Of a stretch of DNA of 64,000 nt, positions 50,384 through 62,721 are shown piece after piece. The notes beneath the pieces were generated by a model that saw only the letters and a program-made list of their open reading frames with translations, did not search any database and was not told the origin of the DNA. The first letter of the stretch is position 1, and each line of letters starts with the position of its first letter. Source of the stretch: Sedimentisphaerales bacterium (GTDB taxonomy: Bacteria; Planctomycetota; Phycisphaerae; Sedimentisphaerales; SM23-30); contig CAXXFK010000018.1 in the NCBI GenBank assembly GCA_963663965.2, forward strand, positions 32,001 through 96,000. Reading direction: 5' to 3'. A program made the position numbers and the translations under genes.

Positions 50384-50989
50384 TTGAAAATGCTGAAAAA
50401 ATGTCTATCGGTCTTATTGTTGATGGCGCCATTTGCGATGGGAAATGTGACCTTTCAGGATGATTTTGAAGGGGACCTTTCGCAATGGATCGGAAAAACA
50501 AATCAGGTCCATCATGGCGTGATTGCTGACGATCCGCTGAATTCGGGCAATAGTGTCTTGAAGTTCTCGCGCACGAATTCGAGTGGCGATATATTTTCGA
50601 CGCCCCTGTTGAGTTATCAAGATGGTCCTATTACCTTGTCGTTTGATTATCTGGGTATTTCGGATAATGGCGGCGCGGTGGCTGATTCGGGCGGCTTTGT
50701 GGGCTTTTCCTATGGCCTGGCGGGCACTCATTACTGGAAACTGGCCACCCAGGGCAGCTATTCGGGTGTGGAAGAGCATCTGATTGACGATGGCAAATGG
50801 CACAGCTATTCACTGGTTATCAATCCGACGCAGGATTTTCATATTATGATCGAAGATTTTGTCAATCCGGCCGGTGACGCTTATTTCGATAATATCAAGA
50901 TCACCAATGCCGCCGTACCGGCGCCGGGCGCGTTGATCCTGGGTTCGCTGGGGACAGGACTGGTTGGCTGGATCCGCCGCAAGAAATAA
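50384..50989 (+). CDS. secreted protein with PEP-CTERM-like VPAPGA sorting signal
   Basis: Signal peptide; C-terminus VPAPGALILGSLGTGLVGWIRRKK. Confidence 0.85.
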   Translation: MKMLKKCLSVLLLMAPFAMGNVTFQDDFEGDLSQWIGKTNQVHHGVIADDPLNSGNSVLKFSRTNSSGDIFSTPLLSYQDGPITLSFDYLGISDNGGAVADSGGFVGFSYGLAGTHYWKLATQGSYSGVEEHLIDDGKWHSYSLVINPTQDFHIMIEDFVNPAGDAYFDNIKITNAAVPAPGALILGSLGTGLVGWIRRKK

Positions 50990-52518: not shown

Positions 52519-52653
52519 GGGGAATGACTTTGGGAAATATACAAGTTAACTTTGAGGTTAGGATATAAGCTTACGTATCATTTCGAATAAATATTCAAGC
52601 ATTGAATTTACGAAATTTTCATTTCTTATGGCGGCAAATCAATTTTCTTAAAA

Positions 52654-52669
52654 TCAGACTATAGTCTGA
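52654..52669. promoter_or_regulatory. palindromic operator (C-box-like) upstream of the XRE gene
   Basis: Perfect 16-bp palindrome TCAGACTATAGTCTGA with GACT..AGTC core. Confidence 0.6.
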
Positions 52670-52761
52670 AGACAGTCGGATAATAAATGTTTACTTTAGT
52701 CTGCAAGCGAGAATCAGCAGCAGAAAGCTTGCTTATCTATTCAATGAAAGGACTTACTAGC

Positions 52762-52977
52762 ATGCTGGGAGATACTTTACGTTACTACCGTAAAAAAGTT
52801 GGTTTAACGCAAGAGCAATTAGCTGAGAAAGCAGGCATCCATCGAACTTATGTAAGCCTGCTTGAACGAAACCTCAAATCACCAACAATAGACACTTTAT
52901 TTCTCATATGTAATGCGCTTCATGTGAAACCCAGTAGTTTGATCAAAGCATTAGAAACTGAACAAGAAAAGAAATAG
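52762..52977 (+). CDS. XRE HTH regulator, R-M controller (C-protein)-like
   Basis: LTQEQLAEKAGIHRTYVSLLERNLKSPT; AAAGGA RBS; immediately upstream of the MTase. Confidence 0.88.
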   Translation: MLGDTLRYYRKKVGLTQEQLAEKAGIHRTYVSLLERNLKSPTIDTLFLICNALHVKPSSLIKALETEQEKK

Positions 52978-52996
52978 AGTGCTCTTGGATATAAAT

Positions 52997-54529
52997 ATGA
53001 AAATACCAATAATAGATTTATTTGCGGGGCCGGGAGGATTAGGGGAAGGCTTTTCGGCATATCAAAATAAAGAAGCTGAACAACCATTCGAAGTCATAAA
53101 ATCGATTGAAAAAGATCAGATTGCACACAAAACATTATTATTAAGGTCTTTTATTCGTAAATTCCCTTCAGATAAAAAGCCAGAAAAATACTTTAAATTT
53201 ATTCAAACAAATTGGAATCTGAATAAGTTTAATAATTTGCTTGATTGTAAGGAAGGGGCGGAAGCACGAAGAGAGGCATTATGTCTTGAACTTGGTAAAG
53301 ATAATGAAGTAATTGATGAAGAAATAAACCAATCCTTATCTGAAATAATACTAAATAATAGACATTGGGTTCTCATTGGTGGTCCACCCTGCCAAGCTTA
53401 TTCGCTGGTTGGCAGGTCAAGAAATAAGGGTAAACAAGGTTGGACATTAGATAATGATTATAGGTCGCATCTATATCAAGAGTATTTGAAAGTTATAGGT
53501 AGATATCAGCCATCAGTATTTGTCATGGAGAATGTGAAAGGAATTCTATCAGCACGATTGAATGAAGGATTAATATTTGAAAAAATAATAAAGGATCTGG
53601 AACGACCAAACGAAGTCAAGTTAGAGGGAATTGTTGAACCAATAACGGGAAAAAAAATAACATATCGATTGTATTCATTCGTGAAAGAACCCGAATTATT
53701 TATAAACCTTAAACCAAAAGATTATATAATTAAGTCTGAAGATTATGGAATACCACAAAATAGACATCGAGTTATTTTGTTAGGCATCAGAGAAGATCTG
53801 AATGTAAAATTAACCCTTTTAAAAAAGAAAGAAAAAAAAATAACCGTATGGGAAGCTATTGGTGATCTACCTTCGGTGATGAGTGGGATTTCTAATAGAA
53901 ATATTAATTTGTCAGAGTTTGATCAACAGCTGAAAAAGTACGCTGAAATACAAGAAATGTTATCAAGTGAATTCAAAAAACTAGTCTTAGATAACGATGT
54001 GTCGAAGGTAATAAAAAAAAGAATATATCAAATTAATAAAAATAATGGCAGAAAACCTTCGGTGTTTAATAAAGAATGGTTTCTTTGTGAAGATTTAAAT
54101 GGTCATATTTGTAATCATGAGTCACGTAACCATATTCGTTCTGATTTGCTGAGATATTTTTTCGTTTCGTGTTTCGGGGAAGCAAAAGACAGAACGCCTA
54201 AGCTGAGCGAATGGCCAGGTGAATTATTTCCAGATCATAAGAATGCGAAATCCGGACATTTTGAAGATCGCTTCAGGGTGCAATTAAGGAACGAACCTTC
54301 AACTACAATTACCTGTCATATAGCAAAAGATGGTCATTATTATATTCATCCGGATCCAAGGCAATGTCGAAGTTTAACTGTTAGAGAAGCAGCAAGATTG
54401 CAAACATTTCCTGATGATTACTTTTTTTGTGGTAATAAAACGAGTCAATATCAACAGGTTGGTAATGCTGTTCCTCCATTATTGGCCTATCAATTGGCTG
54501 ATGTAGTATTCAAAGTATTAGAAGATTGA
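52997..54529 (+). CDS. dcm: DNA (cytosine-5) methyltransferase
   Basis: Motif I DLFAGPGG, IV GGPPCQ, VI ENVKG, VIII PQNRHR, IX VREAARLQTFPD, X QVGNAVPP. Confidence 0.95.
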   Translation: MKIPIIDLFAGPGGLGEGFSAYQNKEAEQPFEVIKSIEKDQIAHKTLLLRSFIRKFPSDKKPEKYFKFIQTNWNLNKFNNLLDCKEGAEARREALCLELGKDNEVIDEEINQSLSEIILNNRHWVLIGGPPCQAYSLVGRSRNKGKQGWTLDNDYRSHLYQEYLKVIGRYQPSVFVMENVKGILSARLNEGLIFEKIIKDLERPNEVKLEGIVEPITGKKITYRLYSFVKEPELFINLKPKDYIIKSEDYGIPQNRHRVILLGIREDLNVKLTLLKKKEKKITVWEAIGDLPSVMSGISNRNINLSEFDQQLKKYAEIQEMLSSEFKKLVLDNDVSKVIKKRIYQINKNNGRKPSVFNKEWFLCEDLNGHICNHESRNHIRSDLLRYFFVSCFGEAKDRTPKLSEWPGELFPDHKNAKSGHFEDRFRVQLRNEPSTTITCHIAKDGHYYIHPDPRQCRSLTVREAARLQTFPDDYFFCGNKTSQYQQVGNAVPPLLAYQLADVVFKVLED

Positions 54530-54531
54530 TA

Positions 54532-54939
54532 ATGACTGATAATGTAAGTAAAGAAAAGCGTAGTTGGAATATGTCACGCATCCACTGCAAAAATACAAAG
54601 CCTGAAAGGCAAGTGAGGTCGATTTTACATATGATGGGATTTCGTTTTCGTTTACATCGAAAAGACTTGCCTGGCAAGCCAGATATTGTATTACCAAAGT
54701 ATAAAACGGTTATATTTGTACATGGTTGTTTCTGGCATAGGCATAAAGGGTGTAAATATGCTTATACACCTAAAAGTCGACAGGAATTCTGGAAAAAAAA
54801 ATTCGAAGATAATTCAAAAAGAGATAAAGACGTAATAGATGAACTTAAAATGCTGGGGTGGAAAGTCATTATAATCTGGGAATGTGAAATTAAAAAACCG
54901 GATATTATTGTTGGTAAATTAGCCACTATTGCAACATAA
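54532..54939 (+). CDS. vsr: very short patch repair endonuclease
   Basis: D..S..KRS.NMSRI...NTKPE, LPGKPDIV, FVHGCFWH.H and IWECE. Confidence 0.95.
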   Translation: MTDNVSKEKRSWNMSRIHCKNTKPERQVRSILHMMGFRFRLHRKDLPGKPDIVLPKYKTVIFVHGCFWHRHKGCKYAYTPKSRQEFWKKKFEDNSKRDKDVIDELKMLGWKVIIIWECEIKKPDIIVGKLATIAT

Positions 54940-54940
54940 A

Positions 54941-55672
54941 TTAATTTTTTCTAAACTTTTCAAATTCTTCCGGTAAAAGAGTTAAAATCATATCTGGAGT
55001 CATGAAATACAGATCCCAAGTTAAGTTGAATTGATCGATTATATCAGCGAGTCTTCTTGGACTTCCACCGCCTTTGCCTCCCGATCCTTTTTTGTTACTT
55101 CTTGTTTTTGGATTATAATATAAGGTGTATGTTGCTTCAATCAGTGATTTATTAGTAATTAATTCTTGTCTTGATGCTATTTGTTCGTGAAGATCTCCCA
55201 ATTTATCAATATCACCTGATAACAATGCCATAGCTCTTTCTGGTTTGTCTTTATGAAAATTATAAATAAGATATGGGCCTCTTAAAAGATGGCGATAGTA
55301 TGTTTGAAAATTGGATATTTCAGGAACCCATCTGTATCTTTTACCTGGTTTATAGCGATTACCATGCGTTTTTGGGCATAACTGATCAAAAAAGAAGAGT
55401 GATAACCATGCCCAGATTCCTTTATCTTTTAAGACAAGTGGATAATCTAGGTCACAAAAAAGATCATGAAGGTATCGAGCCATTTCCAACTTATTGGTAA
55501 ATGTTACTTTTTTGACGAAAGAATTCGAAACACCATCTGAATAATCTGGATTATTCAGGATATGGACTGGGGGTGATTCGGGATTATCAGTATCTAAACT
55601 ATCTAAGAATTCATGAAACTTGAGAATGCCAGAGTCTTTAAGTTTTCTAAGTTTGATGTTTTGCATAGTCAA
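54941..55672 (-). CDS. hypothetical protein (243 aa), island operon gene 4
   Basis: Long AT-rich ORF translationally coupled to the upstream gene; GIWAWLSL.FFDQLCP, YRHLL and RRL....QF..T.D segments. Confidence 0.8.
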   Translation of the reverse strand: MTMQNIKLRKLKDSGILKFHEFLDSLDTDNPESPPVHILNNPDYSDGVSNSFVKKVTFTNKLEMARYLHDLFCDLDYPLVLKDKGIWAWLSLFFFDQLCPKTHGNRYKPGKRYRWVPEISNFQTYYRHLLRGPYLIYNFHKDKPERAMALLSGDIDKLGDLHEQIASRQELITNKSLIEATYTLYYNPKTRSNKKGSGGKGGGSPRRLADIIDQFNLTWDLYFMTPDMILTLLPEEFEKFRKN

Positions 55673-56433
55673 TCTCCATTCTGAATGAAGTCGCAGTAGA
55701 TATCAGAAATTTTGTATTTTCTTGCAAAAGCAATGACAACACCATCTACCCATTCATCGAAATCTTCATTATTATTATCCAAATCAAATTCAGGGATTTT
55801 ACCTGTACCTGGTAATGATTCGGCAAATAAAAGCCATTTCTTTTTCCATATATCATTATCGTTTTCTTCATCTTCTGGTGGATTACTTGTAATATATTGC
55901 AGAACACTTCTAATTATTGCCGGGTAAACCAGTGTAATAAATTCCTTAGAGCAACAAATTTGATCACGACTACCTGCTTTACTGTTTATCAATAGTATGG
56001 GGTAATTATTGTCAAATTCAACTTTCCATATTTCTTCAATATCATCAACGGATTTTACTGGTAAAATGCACTCTCTGTTACTTTCAAGTTCATCAAATTT
56101 GTATGGTTTCAGGCGGTCTGCAAATGCAAGCAATTTGCCTGAAGTGTGTTGTGTATCCGTTACTTTAACTCGAAATAGTATGCCCTCTATGTCATCGAAT
56201 TCATTAAGCTCACAATTATTTGGTTTAGTGATATTTGATATTGTGCCAAAGGGATATCGCATCCATAGGCAACGCCTATATGCCTCTATAAAAACATACG
56301 CATCTTCAGGTAAGTTGTATTTGGATAGTGAGAGATCGGCATCAAAATTCAGATGATTACCTTTTTGGGATACGACAATTGAAATATCGTTACGATTTAA
56401 TTTTTTCCGACCAGTATAGTTAAGCCGTGGCAT
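55669..56433 (-). CDS. hypothetical protein (254 aa), island operon gene 3
   Basis: GGAGG RBS; overlaps the upstream gene by 14 nt; beta-rich N-terminal half, acidic helical C-terminal half. Confidence 0.8.
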   Translation of the reverse strand: MPRLNYTGRKKLNRNDISIVVSQKGNHLNFDADLSLSKYNLPEDAYVFIEAYRRCLWMRYPFGTISNITKPNNCELNEFDDIEGILFRVKVTDTQHTSGKLLAFADRLKPYKFDELESNRECILPVKSVDDIEEIWKVEFDNNYPILLINSKAGSRDQICCSKEFITLVYPAIIRSVLQYITSNPPEDEENDNDIWKKKWLLFAESLPGTGKIPEFDLDNNNEDFDEWVDGVVIAFARKYKISDIYCDFIQNGD

Positions 56434-58351
56434 TTTCTAAACCTCCTTCATTTTCTGTAATTGACGGTTTTACAAGCAAATCGCGGTTAGGATCAAAACC
56501 GATTAGCTTTAAGCGAAAATCGCAATTGAGAATTTCGGCGATAATAACATTGCCCCTAGTCTGGATAATTTTAAGACCTTTAGATTCAGGCTTCATTTTT
56601 TCAATGCGAAAATCGTTGATATTATATTTCGGTTTACGGTCTCTACGATCATAAAATATTTTAATCTGCATTTGCGCGGGCAGATTTAAACTACCTTCGC
56701 CCTTGGTAAGTGTAAAGCCGCCATTGATTTTGTTTAAACGATACCGCTTTGGCTTGTGGGGTATTTCTAAATGGGGCGGTCCGGTTCTATCGCCACGATC
56801 TTCTTTTTTCTTTCTTTTTTCTGGTCGTGATATGGTAATATCAGATGATGGTATTGAAAAGAAATCCAAGAGTAAATTATGGTCTTCCTGCTTAGCACTT
56901 TCTTCAGAAATGCCAATGATTTCACTTACGCTTTTCTTGATAAAAGTGAGGGTTTTTGAGCCATAGGTGTACCTGTTTTTGAAGTTATCAGATGTTGTTG
57001 ACCATTCGGTGTGTGATGGGTTTTCAGCATTACCGAGAAAGTCTGCTATATGTGGTTCGTCAGCGATTACTAGTGAAACCACACTTCGATTAGTCGGTAT
57101 TCTTTTTTCATCTGGTATAATCAGGCCTTTTCGAATAAATACGGGATAACCTTTAGAGTAGCTTGGGTGTCTTTGTATGAAGACTTTGAAATAAGTCTCA
57201 TGTTCCACTTGTTTTATTTTGTCTTTGATGTATACCGGCACTTTAATGGCAATATTTTCTTCACTAACTAAGCGCTTACGAATAATATTTTGAATCTCAG
57301 CAGGTACTAATTTTTCGGACCATTCTGGTGCTGCAGTTGATACTGGACATATTGTTTCAAGGCATTCATCACTAGGCAACTTGTTGGCCCATTTAGCGAG
57401 TTCAATTTTCGCATGCAATTCTTTGTTGTCGCTTAGGAAGTCTGAATTAAGAATAGCTTCTATTGAACCAGATTCAATTCTAGTATTATTGTCGGGAGTA
57501 GCTATATCAACATATAATTCACCTGTTATAATTGGCCAAAAGTAATGTGAAATCAGTGCCTGCAGTATTGATTGTTCATTAATGTCATCATCTATAAATG
57601 GCACAATTAATGAAAGGCCGGGTTCACTTGAACGTGCCAAGTGAAAATCATTGCAGAATCTAGTGATTTCGTCTGAGTGGCCATTATCATCAAGAGGAAC
57701 AGGTATATAATCGTTTTGTATTGGAATCTGTTTTGCATACCAACCATCTGATGTAAAATCTTCGCTATTAACTTTATGAGACCTCAATAAACATTGTCCA
57801 AAGAATATTTTTTGGTTATCTTCCGAACGAACTGACAGGCCGAAGAATGCTTTGATATTGCTGGCCTTTGGGAAAACAATTTTTCCAATTCCATGTCTGC
57901 CTCTATCTGAATCATGTTTACCCGATTGACCTTCTGCTCTGAAAAAGTAATAAAATGGATTTGAATCTTTTTCCTCTGGTTCAGAATATTCTATTAAATT
58001 ACCATTCAATCCAGATGTATTAAAATCCTCAATAACAACATATTTACATGGTTGGTTTCTGTCCGGGCAATCTTGTAATCCGTTATTTTTTGCATTTAAA
58101 TGATTCCATAGTTCTTCAGTAAAATAAAATCGAGCTTTTTCGGGTTGCAAAGCACCATTATCATTAGATAAATAAATCCTTATTCCAACCGGATTGTTCA
58201 AATCAATTCTGGCATCTAAGGAATTTTGGATTGCTTCTCGAATCAAACTTGTCGAGATAGAGTTGTCTGACTCAAAAAATTTGCTGTGCATTGGTTCCCT
58301 TTTTTTGCCCTGTGGCAAAATACGATCAAAAAACCAACCAAAACCGGACAT
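56420..58351 (-). CDS. GHKL-like ATPase domain protein (643 aa), island operon gene 2
   Basis: IREAIQNSLDA (N box), IEDFNTSGL (G1-like) and SGK....GRHGIGK (G2); AAAGGAG RBS. Confidence 0.78.
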   Translation of the reverse strand: MSGFGWFFDRILPQGKKREPMHSKFFESDNSISTSLIREAIQNSLDARIDLNNPVGIRIYLSNDNGALQPEKARFYFTEELWNHLNAKNNGLQDCPDRNQPCKYVVIEDFNTSGLNGNLIEYSEPEEKDSNPFYYFFRAEGQSGKHDSDRGRHGIGKIVFPKASNIKAFFGLSVRSEDNQKIFFGQCLLRSHKVNSEDFTSDGWYAKQIPIQNDYIPVPLDDNGHSDEITRFCNDFHLARSSEPGLSLIVPFIDDDINEQSILQALISHYFWPIITGELYVDIATPDNNTRIESGSIEAILNSDFLSDNKELHAKIELAKWANKLPSDECLETICPVSTAAPEWSEKLVPAEIQNIIRKRLVSEENIAIKVPVYIKDKIKQVEHETYFKVFIQRHPSYSKGYPVFIRKGLIIPDEKRIPTNRSVVSLVIADEPHIADFLGNAENPSHTEWSTTSDNFKNRYTYGSKTLTFIKKSVSEIIGISEESAKQEDHNLLLDFFSIPSSDITISRPEKRKKKEDRGDRTGPPHLEIPHKPKRYRLNKINGGFTLTKGEGSLNLPAQMQIKIFYDRRDRKPKYNINDFRIEKMKPESKGLKIIQTRGNVIIAEILNCDFRLKLIGFDPNRDLLVKPSITENEGGLENATA

Positions 58352-58363
58352 ATGAAACTCCTT

Positions 58364-58606
58364 TCATAATTCAAAATTTCGTTTTGATTTTGAAAACGTG
58401 AACCTCATTTTAGAAATTTTTATTTCTTTTTCTAATGCCGAAAAAATTTTATTGATATCTTGCTCTGAATATTCATACGAGCTTTTGTTTGAACAATTAC
58501 CAAGTAGTCTAATCTTTTCAATTATCTCATTAGTTCTTCGACTTGCAATACGTACAAAACGATCTTTGCGAGACTCGTCTTTTTTTGAAATATTACTAAT
58601 TTTCAT
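58364..58606 (-). CDS. small basic helical protein (80 aa), island operon gene 1
   Basis: RKDRFVRIASRRTNEIIEKIRLLGNCSNKSSYEYSEQDINKIF; start ATG 58606 lies downstream of a consensus promoter. Confidence 0.75.
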   Translation of the reverse strand: MKISNISKKDESRKDRFVRIASRRTNEIIEKIRLLGNCSNKSSYEYSEQDINKIFSALEKEIKISKMRFTFSKSKRNFEL

Positions 58607-58637
58607 AATATGTATTCTTAAATATGGAAATATATGT

Positions 58638-58665
58638 AATATATTCAAAATGCTACATGTGTCAA
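58638..58665 (-). promoter_or_regulatory. sigma70-type promoter of the four-gene operon
   Basis: Minus strand TTGACA-16 nt-TATATT. Confidence 0.55.
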
Positions 58666-58778
58666 GACGGTTTTTTGAAAATAATATTAAATATTGTTCA
58701 AAATATTGTAAAAGCTTCAATATAAAACATTTGCATTATTATTAAAAGTGCTACTTTCAGCAAAGAATTATTATTAAT

Positions 58779-59066
58779 GTGAAATTTCATTATCTCTATC
58801 GTGACGCCAGCAATTATTAAGATATTTCATGATGAAGTATTGGCAGGAGAATTGAAGTTGGAGGATATGGAGCCTTATTTGTGGGAGGGAGAATTTTTTG
58901 TCCCATCGGAAGTTGGTTTAAAGATTTGCAACCGGAAGTATTTACGGTCGATGATCATATCTGGCATTCGATTGAAGGAGTTGAACCAACCGATGATTTA
59001 CCAACTTGTGATGTAACTGCGGAAGAATTCAAGAATCGGTTTCGGAGTGCATCTTTGCAGGATTAG
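58779..59066 (+). pseudogene. small acidic hypothetical protein, two frameshifts
   Basis: Joins into KFHYLYRDASNYK...GEFFVPSEVGL.DLQ....DDHIWH...; GTG start uncertain. Confidence 0.55.
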
Positions 59067-59219
59067 AATCAAGGGCAAGTGTTTCGGTGAAAGGGATTAT
59101 TATGAGTGCGGTTGAGAGGCGGGGGTGGACTCGGGATGAGTTGATTTTGGCGGTGAATTTGAATTGTAAGACGCCGTTTGGGCGGATTCATGATCAGGTT
59201 CTCAAAAAGCCACGCTGAA

Positions 59220-59463
59220 GGGCCTGTTGCCCAAAGACAGATCAAGCAGGGTTGCTTGACCAGTCTGACTGGCCCAAGTATTTCTGTCGTCCCTGCGGGA
59301 CTTGTTCTGAGTGGGTTTGGCCTGAATCCCCCCAATGAATTGGGGGGCTACGCACTGACAGCCCGCCTGAGGCGGATCTTCGACCCTGCGGGCTTCAGGG
59401 GTATCCGCCGGGCGGCAGATGGTATTTTTCGTGACGCTCGACCTGTATTTGTGCAACAGGCCC
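59220..59463. mobile_element. 244-bp MITE with 28-bp TIRs and TGAA target duplication
   Basis: Left GGGCCTGTTGCCCAAAGACAGATCAAGC vs reverse complement of right end GGGCCTGTTGCACAAATACAGGTCGAGC (24/28 match); TGAA at 59216-59219 and 59464-59467. Confidence 0.75.
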
Positions 59464-59702
59464 TGAAGCGTGGGCTCCGTAGGGGCGCTATCTGCGGTTT
59501 GGCTCAACCGTCCGTACGAGGGAGGGCCGATAATCGTGAGGGTTAAGGAAGGGGTGTGTAAAAAAGGGTGAAAATAAGTGAAATTATATGTGGTAGCGCT
59601 GTTAAGGCGGTTATTGATTGTGACGATAAAGTTAGCGTTATTTTAGCGTATCTGTTCAAACGAATCAGAGAATGTGATAGTCACTGTTTTGAAGGAGTCG
59701 TC

Positions 59703-61736: not shown

Positions 61737-62001
61737 AGCAGACGCCCCCGGGCTTATCCGTCGTCTGGATTTTTCCATGAATTAGAGTCGGCCAGCAATG
61801 AAGCACTACGCGGTCATCCAATTCGACTGGAATCCTGGCAGTTATCGCGGTGTCCTCAGTTGGAATCATGCCCGATAAACCTATTGGCGGTCAATATAGC
61901 GCCACGGGCGGATTTTGCTTGTATTGGGTCTCTCGATGGGTTATAATGATGGTTTGCATTGGAGACCCGAAAGAAGAATACTATTATTATTGAAGGAGAA
62001 A

Positions 62002-62721
62002 ATGATGAAGAGAATGTCTGTATGTGTCGGTATGTTTTTACTGGCGGCGATATTGTGTCCGATAAGTATGGCCCACGCGGGTGTTACGTATTATTGGACG
62101 GACTGGACGGACGCGACGACCGGTCTGGCGGGATCGGCAGATGGTTCGATCGCAACCGGGAGCGAGACGATTGGTATCAGTTATACTGGTGAGGTTAATT
62201 TTGCCCAGACCAATAGTGGGACCAATTACTGGACCGGTCTGAAAAATGGCGGCAGTACGCCGGCCACAACTTACACGGCCGCCGGCCTGGTGGATAACGG
62301 CCCGGTCAGCAGCGATATTATCAGCCTCAAGGGCGGTAACCAGATTGTTAATACAATTACCTTTTCACAGGCAGTTGTTGATCCGGTACTGGCCATTATG
62401 AGTATGGGACAAAATTCTGTACCGGTTAAATATTACTTTGACACACCGTTTGATGTGTTAAGTTTTGGCCAGGGTTACTGGGGCAACGGCACGTTGGCCG
62501 AAGATGCCGGTAATGTGTTATTGGGTTATGAAGGTCATGGTATTATCCAGTTAAAAGGGACTTATACCGCCATCAGCTGGACCTGTCCGACATTTGAAAA
62601 CTGGCACGGCTTTACCGTGGGTGTCGCGGGCGCGGCTATGCCGGCGGTTCCGGCACCGGGCGCTTTGATCCTGAGCGGACTGGGCTCTGGCCTGGTAGGC
62701 TGGATACGTCGCAAGAAATAA
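62002..62721 (+). CDS. secreted protein with PEP-CTERM-like VPAPGA sorting signal
   Basis: GAAGGAG RBS; signal peptide ending AHA; C-terminus VPAPGALILSGLGSGLVGWIRRKK. Confidence 0.85.
   Translation: MMKRMSVCVGMFLLAAILCPISMAHAGVTYYWTDWTDATTGLAGSADGSIATGSETIGISYTGEVNFAQTNSGTNYWTGLKNGGSTPATTYTAAGLVDNGPVSSDIISLKGGNQIVNTITFSQAVVDPVLAIMSMGQNSVPVKYYFDTPFDVLSFGQGYWGNGTLAEDAGNVLLGYEGHGIIQLKGTYTAISWTCPTFENWHGFTVGVAGAAMPAVPAPGALILSGLGSGLVGWIRRKK

Follow-up and report, generated by a model that had tools for sequence, protein, structure and literature searches.

Here we analysed a 64,000-nucleotide stretch of DNA from a Sedimentisphaerales bacterium (the window), and within it a compact seven-gene island in which a cytosine methylase unit faces a cassette of four genes that we call S-A-B-C after their products S80, A643, B254 and C241. 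The two units converge, XRE-dcm-vsr on the plus strand and S80-A643-B254-C241 on the minus strand, with one base between their stop codons (54939/54941). The genes and a candidate operator are the following, with positions given in the window:

52654..52669, no strand: 16-bp perfect palindrome, candidate operator for the XRE/C-protein, about 95 nucleotides (nt) upstream of the XRE start

52762..52977, plus strand: XRE-family helix-turn-helix regulator, C-protein-like, 71 amino acids (aa) (HTH_3, 8e-18; PADLOC Control_protein, 5e-12)

52997..54529, plus strand: dcm, a C5-cytosine DNA methyltransferase (C5-MTase) of the long DrmMII-like type, 510 aa (PF00145, 4e-49; DrmMII, 1e-95)

54532..54939, plus strand: vsr, very-short-patch mismatch endonuclease Vsr, 135 aa (PF03852, 1e-31; TIGR00632, 2e-44)

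54941..55666, minus strand: protein C (C241; 243 aa from TTG 55672), mostly helical, putative distant relative of DUF6339/PDC-M33C (alignment, model, hhalign)

55669..56433, minus strand: protein B (B254), unassigned partner that always comes directly after A, weakly similar to PDC-M33B-position proteins (loci counts, hhalign)

56420..58351, minus strand: protein A (A643), GHKL ATPase with S5 transducer, apparently paraMORC2-like, relative of PDC-M33A (PADLOC, alignment, model, fold search)

58364..58606, minus strand: S80, a small operon-leading protein, optional (homologues upstream of A in other loci)

The original prediction is borne out in its reading frames, strands and overlaps and in the single base that separates the convergent stops: the A and B frames share 14 nt, and the 4-nt overlap of B and C holds solely with the C start at TTG 55672, the database protein beginning at ATG 55666 (241 aa). 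The locus had also been described as an AT-rich block in a GC-rich host, which is correct for the island (GC content 0.343) but not for the host genome, which at 48.6% GC is not strongly GC-rich. GC as low as this occurs in 1 of 1092 genome segments of 6.5 kb, making the island the lowest-GC stretch of the genome, and the GC content at third codon positions is 0.20-0.31 in the island and 0.64-0.79 in the two flanking genes. Protein A was present in none of 24 genomes of the same family and in 1 of 60 relatives. Taken together, the low GC and the rarity of A among relatives indicate that the island was acquired recently and from outside, and S-A-B-C is a self-contained, horizontally acquired cassette. 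There are no transfer RNA genes within the 64-kb window. The identities of XRE, dcm and vsr agree across Pfam, NCBIfam and PADLOC, and the island dcm is the sole C5-MTase found by tblastn in the host assembly, which is 94.6% complete. Vsr repairs the T:G mismatches that arise from deamination of 5-methylcytosine (5mC). The longest XRE frame begins at 52687, the called start being 52762; when a 246-nt region was shuffled 2000 times, a palindrome of at least 14 bp arose on 43 occasions, and the one at 52654-52669 we take to be akin to the C-boxes of C-protein operators. As had been noted, no Z1, AIPR, helicase or recognised restriction endonuclease (REase) gene lies in the island.

Protein A is, by sequence and predicted fold, a GHKL+S5 ATPase with intact catalytic motifs. 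A643 has no Pfam or NCBIfam match and in PADLOC it matches PDC-M33A (E = 9.6e-26 over residues 32-303, with a second segment at 309-424). Among 7998 candidates scored, 528 were homologues of A, and E39, N43, D109, G114, G117, G154, G156, K157, E443 and H447 are invariant in the 116 homologues aligned; in the copies examined within their loci, the ATP-motif positions are kept in 51-52 of 52 and, in the dispersed planctomycete clade described below, in 27 of 27. The structure model (pLDDT, the predicted local distance difference test score, 89.8) comprises GHKL and S5 transducer domains (about residues 12-493), a flexible basic linker (about 499-535) and a C-terminal beta-rich domain. Its best Foldseek match was Top6B (E = 4.6e-12), and residues 12-493 were superposed on Hsp90 (Z = 19.3; root-mean-square deviation, rmsd, 4.9; 297 aligned), MORC3 (Z = 16.7; rmsd 4.1; 295 aligned), Top6B (Z = 16.2; rmsd 5.1; 312 aligned) and MutL (Z = 15.0; rmsd 4.6; 286 aligned), with SMCHD1 also among these matches, all of them in the Z range 15-19. 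The N, G1 and G2 boxes first proposed for this protein thus hold, their key residues being invariant and the predicted fold agreeing. Comparison of A with the sequences of solved structures gave nothing credible, and a single-sequence query found no relatives of A in viral contigs. A Topo VI-like reading, with a Top6B-like A and a tyrosine pair in C, was set aside, because Top6B is not outstanding by Z and the tyrosines are lost in whole clades.

Residues E443 and H447 of A form an ExxxH motif. In the accessible portion of Iyer et al. 2008 (PMC2292703), to which all our statements on that paper refer, paraMORC2 proteins are defined by ExxxH late in the S5 domain, and paraMORCs are placed in restriction-modification (R-M) operons with methylases, Vsr and Z1-type helicases, where DNA looping is proposed for them. 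All 16 remote A proteins examined likewise carry the ExxxH pattern, between residues 375 and 440. By this motif, which the remote homologues share, and by the position of three of these homologues (L103-L105, see below) next to Z1 and DUF4420 genes, A would be paraMORC2-like.

The whole cassette was compared with PDC-M33, one of the phage defence candidates (PDC) that were added to PADLOC for future functional study (Payne et al., bioRxiv 10.1101/2024.01.29.577857, in its accessible portion); the main text of that preprint makes no mention of M33. PDC-M33 has three genes (model lengths of 627, 289 and 250 positions for A, B and C) whose size and order are like those of A-B-C, and hhalign of the A families gave 100% over 418 columns, ExxxH included. 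In the case of C, hhalign against DUF6339/M33C-position proteins gave 92.8% (E = 3.9e-7) with a broad set of 15 sequences and 68% (E = 4.7e-5) with a core set of 8; B against M33B-position proteins gave 42% (E = 2.6e-4) with the broad and 7% (E = 5e-3) with the core set, and swapped controls remained below 0.5% (E = 0.15-0.44). Weak DUF6339 matches were found in 5 of 119 C homologues. The hidden Markov model (HMM) of PDC-M33B recognised none of 63 B-family members at E <= 0.1 and nothing in the host genome at E <= 10, and that of PDC-M33C none of the 119 C-family members and nothing in the host genome or in five other genomes carrying the A-B-C trio. Because A matches, C is related by profile comparison and B weakly, with no match to the M33B or M33C HMM, the cassette is to be regarded as a divergent relative of PDC-M33 and not as a formal member. 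The original description of the system as undescribed is thus not supported: by these alignments the cassette is a distant relative of a catalogued defence candidate, and the loci that score as PDC-M33 have the S-A-B-C order. One of them, on an Arthrobacter plasmid (L086), yields M33A, M33B and M33C matches in that order, is preceded by an S80 homologue and adjoins dcm-vsr-REase; Priestia, Planococcus and Paenarthrobacter have similar loci that close with DUF6339. Our literature searches on PDC-M33 and DUF6339 found no paper, and those on paraMORC and combined topics turned up no study of the cassette and no test of paraMORC2 cassettes or of PDC-M33, the supplements of PADLOC and of Iyer et al. 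being places where it may be described.

Scans of B254 with Pfam, NCBIfam, PADLOC and PHROGs gave no family matches. Protein C has a mostly helical model (pLDDT 93.7), in which H126 and Q212 are almost universal among homologues and R125 and R205 largely kept. Fold searches with this model gave a best E of 1.2 against the PDB and of 1.6 against viral structures (both Foldseek), and a best Z of 3.9 (rmsd 3.0; 65 aligned) against 48,161 chains with VIA-align, weak results that would be compatible with a known family and fall short of proving a new fold. Nor did they give a clear sign of the 5Y-CAP and TOPRIM domains that a Top6A-type partner would have. The top match of C among the sequences of solved structures, the acetolactate synthase small subunit (E = 0.002), was judged spurious, and the top ESM Atlas matches of B and C were unnamed clusters only. 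Longer or fused forms of C were absent among 8000 candidates, which is weak evidence; a C match within a 966-aa open frame (G587:C28:9923-10618) is a possible fusion. S80 homologues precede A in the PDC-M33-type loci L086, L100, L107, L108, L110 and L111. Two other genes were observed at that position: a MazE/AbrB-type antitoxin gene replaces S80 upstream of A in L012, L022, L028, L032, L047 and L070, in most of them with a PIN gene next, and a gene of about 200-220 aa (cluster c9) with no Pfam match, possibly a fourth component, lies directly upstream of A in L001, L026, L044, L046, L048, L050 and L073.

At least 504 loci were confirmed in species-representative genomes, and the best 80 served for counting neighbours. 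Of these 80 loci, 64 have B, 56 have C, 28 have dcm, 22 have vsr and 9 have S80; A-B-C is a conserved unit, and the trio is syntenic across phyla, as had been asked of it. Among the A+C loci, 29 are flanked by 4 kb or more on each side, and 18 of these have a C5-MTase; outside the dispersed planctomycete clade the proportion is 18 of 24. The chance expectation of such a neighbour is, by our arithmetic, below about 1%, given that 54 of the 101 Planctomycetaceae genomes sampled have any C5-MTase at all, usually one to three copies in 5-8 Mb. The predicted co-occurrence with methylases is therefore real: the link is strong and far above chance, but the methylase is exchangeable. By similarity the dcm genes can be sorted into a window-like class (13), an intermediate class (6) and a distant class (9), and these are interspersed across the A tree. 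That tree was built with FastTree from 79 A sequences (621 columns) and rooted at its midpoint; L064 and L080, being truncated or split, are not in it. An EcoRII-C or MvaI/BcnI REase lies beside 8 of the 9 distant-class dcm loci; beside the other 19 no REase was recognised among the genes scanned, a partial scan of 60 of 62 cluster representatives and 93 single genes of at least 190 aa within 1.8 kb. Sister cassettes on the A tree stand beside unrelated methylases (L032/L001, L065/L015 and L007/L047). Since the methylases are interleaved, the cassette swaps partners, and it is often redundant to a complete R-M system; an exchangeable partner, often with its own REase, counts against a dedicated cognate restriction arm.

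The wider neighbourhoods are defence-like, with Shedu, DarT, HNH and Mrr genes. Remote A homologues lie beside type II R-M (L086, L107, L110 and L111), type I R-M (L085) and AIPR (L084), and in L103-L105 a remote A and genes in the B and C positions come directly after Z1 and DUF4420, with dcm-vsr nearby. In a clade of 14 loci (support 0.96), several of them short contigs, dcm was not seen in the vicinity. As a separate observation, in L062 and L078 the cassette, dcm and an EcoRII-type REase adjoin an imuA-imuB-dnaE2-like mutagenesis cluster (matches to SulA, IMS and Pol III alpha).

The dispersed planctomycete clade comprises 27 loci from genomes labelled Planctomycetota (support 1.0), none of which has dcm nearby, and its members grade from intact operons, by way of A+B pairs, to solitary A genes with housekeeping neighbours. 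Where A is solitary, C was located at another place of the genome in 5 of 5 cases and B likewise in 5 of 5 (one solely as a contig-end fragment), these separated copies lying among unrelated genes at host-like GC. The GC of A minus that of its far flanks is -0.005 in this clade (n = 17) as compared with -0.055 elsewhere (n = 37), and the 14 ATPase and ExxxH positions tested are all intact in 27 of 27 members. In the Planctomycetaceae genus of genome G466 (54 genomes), A is present in 43, B in 40, C in 39, all three (mostly dispersed) in 37 and none in 10; about eight of these genomes carry a different, operon-type copy, and many assemblies are fragmented, with completeness unstated. Across the Planctomycetaceae sample all three genes occur in 11 of 101 genomes. 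The dispersed C copies of the G466 genus lack Y123, Y124, Q162 and E168. These data point to vertical retention in this lineage and to a role needing no linked methylase. In the same genus (L132-L136 and L138-L142; L013, L017, L020, L021, L024, L031 and L043) A is often duplicated, one copy lying with B and one alone.

Tentatively, and with just under even confidence, we take S-A-B-C to be a methylation-linked accessory defence module that travels with R-M methylases, and not a fixed cognate restriction enzyme. In such a scenario A would dimerise on ATP and clamp or loop DNA, as MutL, MORC and Top6B do, B would be an adaptor and C the DNA-contacting head, with R125-H126, R205 and Q212 binding DNA and Tyr123-Tyr124 sensing the state of cytosine methylation. 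The island dcm would mark self DNA, Vsr would mend T:G mismatches from 5mC deamination, the XRE protein would time expression after arrival, and incoming DNA that lacks the mark would be caught and blocked, or else cut by an unrecognised site or a borrowed nuclease. The aromatic pair of C could read the methyl group: counted from alignment columns, an aromatic-Tyr pair at positions 123-124 is present in 29 of 30 copies adjoining a C5-MTase, in 3 of 14 copies of the clade in which no dcm was seen and in 0 of 13 of the dispersed planctomycete clade.

Several results weigh against this interpretation. Where no dcm was seen, 6 of 8 other loci and 3 of 6 other planctomycete operons still have the aromatic pair, and its covariation amounts to only two or three clade-level losses; with so few events it counts as a lead and not as a statistic. 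The YYRH site of C is not conserved in canonical DUF6339 proteins. Eleven of the 29 well-flanked A+C loci lack a C5-MTase: five belong to the dispersed planctomycete clade, three adjoin adenine R-M systems (L052, L059 and L080), one adjoins Mrr (L045) and two have nothing recognised. Among Planctomycetaceae genomes those with the trio are enriched neither in C5-MTase (7 of 11 against 47 of 90; P = 0.54) nor in vsr (6 of 11 against 34 of 90; P = 0.34). Scans with Pfam, NCBIfam, PADLOC and PHROGs assigned none of the four cassette proteins to a nuclease or effector family, and defence systems are not usually as close to fixation as the trio is in one genus (37 of 54 genomes).

An alternative is a repair or maintenance module for damage caused by C5-methylases, in which a MutL-like clamp aids Vsr or removes trapped methylase-DNA adducts and later became a general maintenance factor in the planctomycete genus. 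MutL is known to stimulate Vsr, the fold of A matches MutL, MORC, Hsp90 and Top6B, vsr occurs in 20 of the 56 A+C loci, the cassette often accompanies complete R-M systems for which an additional restriction arm would be superfluous, as in the distant-dcm loci, and the genes are kept, dispersed and ameliorated in one genus. The occasional recruitment of such ATPases to repair has also been suggested (Iyer et al. 2008, PMC2292703). However, the cassette also accompanies adenine-only R-M systems and AIPR in loci that have neither dcm nor vsr, its neighbourhoods resemble defence islands, and no link to C5-MTase or vsr appears at the genome level. We consider the repair role rather unlikely.

To the same extent we doubt that the cassette is a guard or back-up defence, independent of methylation, that merely shares its location with R-M systems, A sensing a phage product or DNA structure and B and C triggering arrest or blocking replication. 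The intermixing of methylase types on the A tree and the 14-locus clade with no dcm seen nearby agree with such a guard, as does the definition of PDC systems by their being embedded in other systems (bioRxiv 10.1101/2024.01.29.577857), but the strong C5-MTase bias (18 of 24) and the covariation of the Tyr pair are not expected from chance co-location in islands. Less probable still is the strict version, in which the operon would be a sequence-specific restriction arm cognate to the island dcm, B or C containing a novel nuclease: it draws on dcm being the only C5-MTase found in the genome, with a C-protein-like regulator, and on no REase having been recognised among the scanned neighbours of the 19 loci with window-type or related long dcm, but unrelated, REase-bearing methylases beside sister cassettes mean that specificity would have to switch repeatedly, and no nuclease family was detected, in a neighbour scan that was partial. 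What was first claimed of the operon, that it is the restriction arm of a methylation-gated system, is accordingly weakened: the singularity of dcm in its genome still speaks for it, whereas methylase partners are swapped and often bring their own REases, and the cassette also sits beside adenine R-M and persists without a neighbouring methylase.

Returning to the accessory defence module, a bolder version of it seems distinctly unlikely to us, namely a restriction-like machine, free of helicase and nuclease or with a new nuclease, in which a paraMORC2 clamp drives a C subunit, perhaps of new fold, that reads 5mC through its Tyr pair, and whose three genes were domesticated in the G466 genus into a housekeeping factor for DNA organisation or repair (operon split, A duplicated, reader site lost, ATPase intact). 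If true, this would be a bacterial parallel to the MORC ATPases recruited from R-M systems into chromatin. The dispersed, near-fixed planctomycete version would represent a rare case of a mobile R-M-associated ATPase module turning into core genes. The seven-gene island, compact and with dcm as the sole C5-MTase found in its host, offers a clean construct in which to study a GHKL clamp without recognisable nuclease together with cytosine methylation; E39, N43 and H447 of A, and R125/H126 and Y123/Y124 of C, are the residues to mutate.

The range first assigned to the locus (52540-59066) contains the cassette, but its 3' end does not belong to it. Two further features lie at this edge of the island:

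58779..59066, plus strand: broken small gene at the island edge, outside the cassette (three-frame translation)

59102..59218, plus strand: N-terminal remnant of an HNH endonuclease (about 30 codons), its end cut by a genomic repeat (68% identity over 25 aa, E = 2e-5)

The small gene has an early stop and frame changes and is a pseudogene, the pieces of it that were tested giving no family match. The HNH remnant, which lies just outside the original range, resembles an annotated HNH endonuclease; two planctomycete loci (L126 and L137) have complete HNH_2 genes separating the trio from dcm. The repeat that cuts off the remnant is non-coding (59212-59485) and has a copy on contig C30 (90.5% identity over 275 nt); its core, about 45-55 nt long, recurs at over 20 sites in the genome, and the repeat may be an element of the MITE (miniature inverted-repeat transposable element) or REP (repetitive extragenic palindromic) kind. 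Elsewhere in the window, two secreted-looking proteins (50384-50989 and 61915-62721, plus strand) share near-identical C-terminal tails, similar to sorting signals of the PEP-CTERM type.

Placing the cassette among known systems, the mzaABCDE-like operons combine MORC, Z1, DUF4420, AIPR and dcm genes, and they share with the island, as do DISARM-II and Druantia-II, a long DrmMII-like C5-MTase and Vsr, mza having a GHKL ATPase as well. However, no island protein matches Z1, DUF4420, AIPR, DrmABCE or DruEFG, and the methylase alone matches DrmMII/DruM. The paraMORC2 proteins have the GHKL+S5 architecture with the invariant ExxxH seen in A, and the remote A relatives in Z1-DUF4420-dcm-vsr operons correspond to the paraMORCs described as replacing MORC there; unlike those operons the island has no superfamily 2 (SF2) helicase and no REase, and the accessible portion of that paper does not describe partners like B and C (PMC2292703). 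VcSduA, a paraMORC3 Shedu protein (PMC12137116), and Tiamat (bioRxiv 10.64898/2026.09.30.754977) are, in the accessible portions of these two sources, tested anti-phage GHKL proteins for which a clamp model is proposed, as we do for A; a PD-(D/E)xK nuclease is fused to them, whereas A643 has no such family match and has separate partners. The closest relative would be PDC-M33, whose loci share with the island cassette the S80 homologue upstream and the frequent dcm and vsr neighbours. The island's clade differs from it in the YYRH/EQxxSRQE site of C, which is specific to this clade, and in including the dispersed, near-fixed planctomycete lineage.

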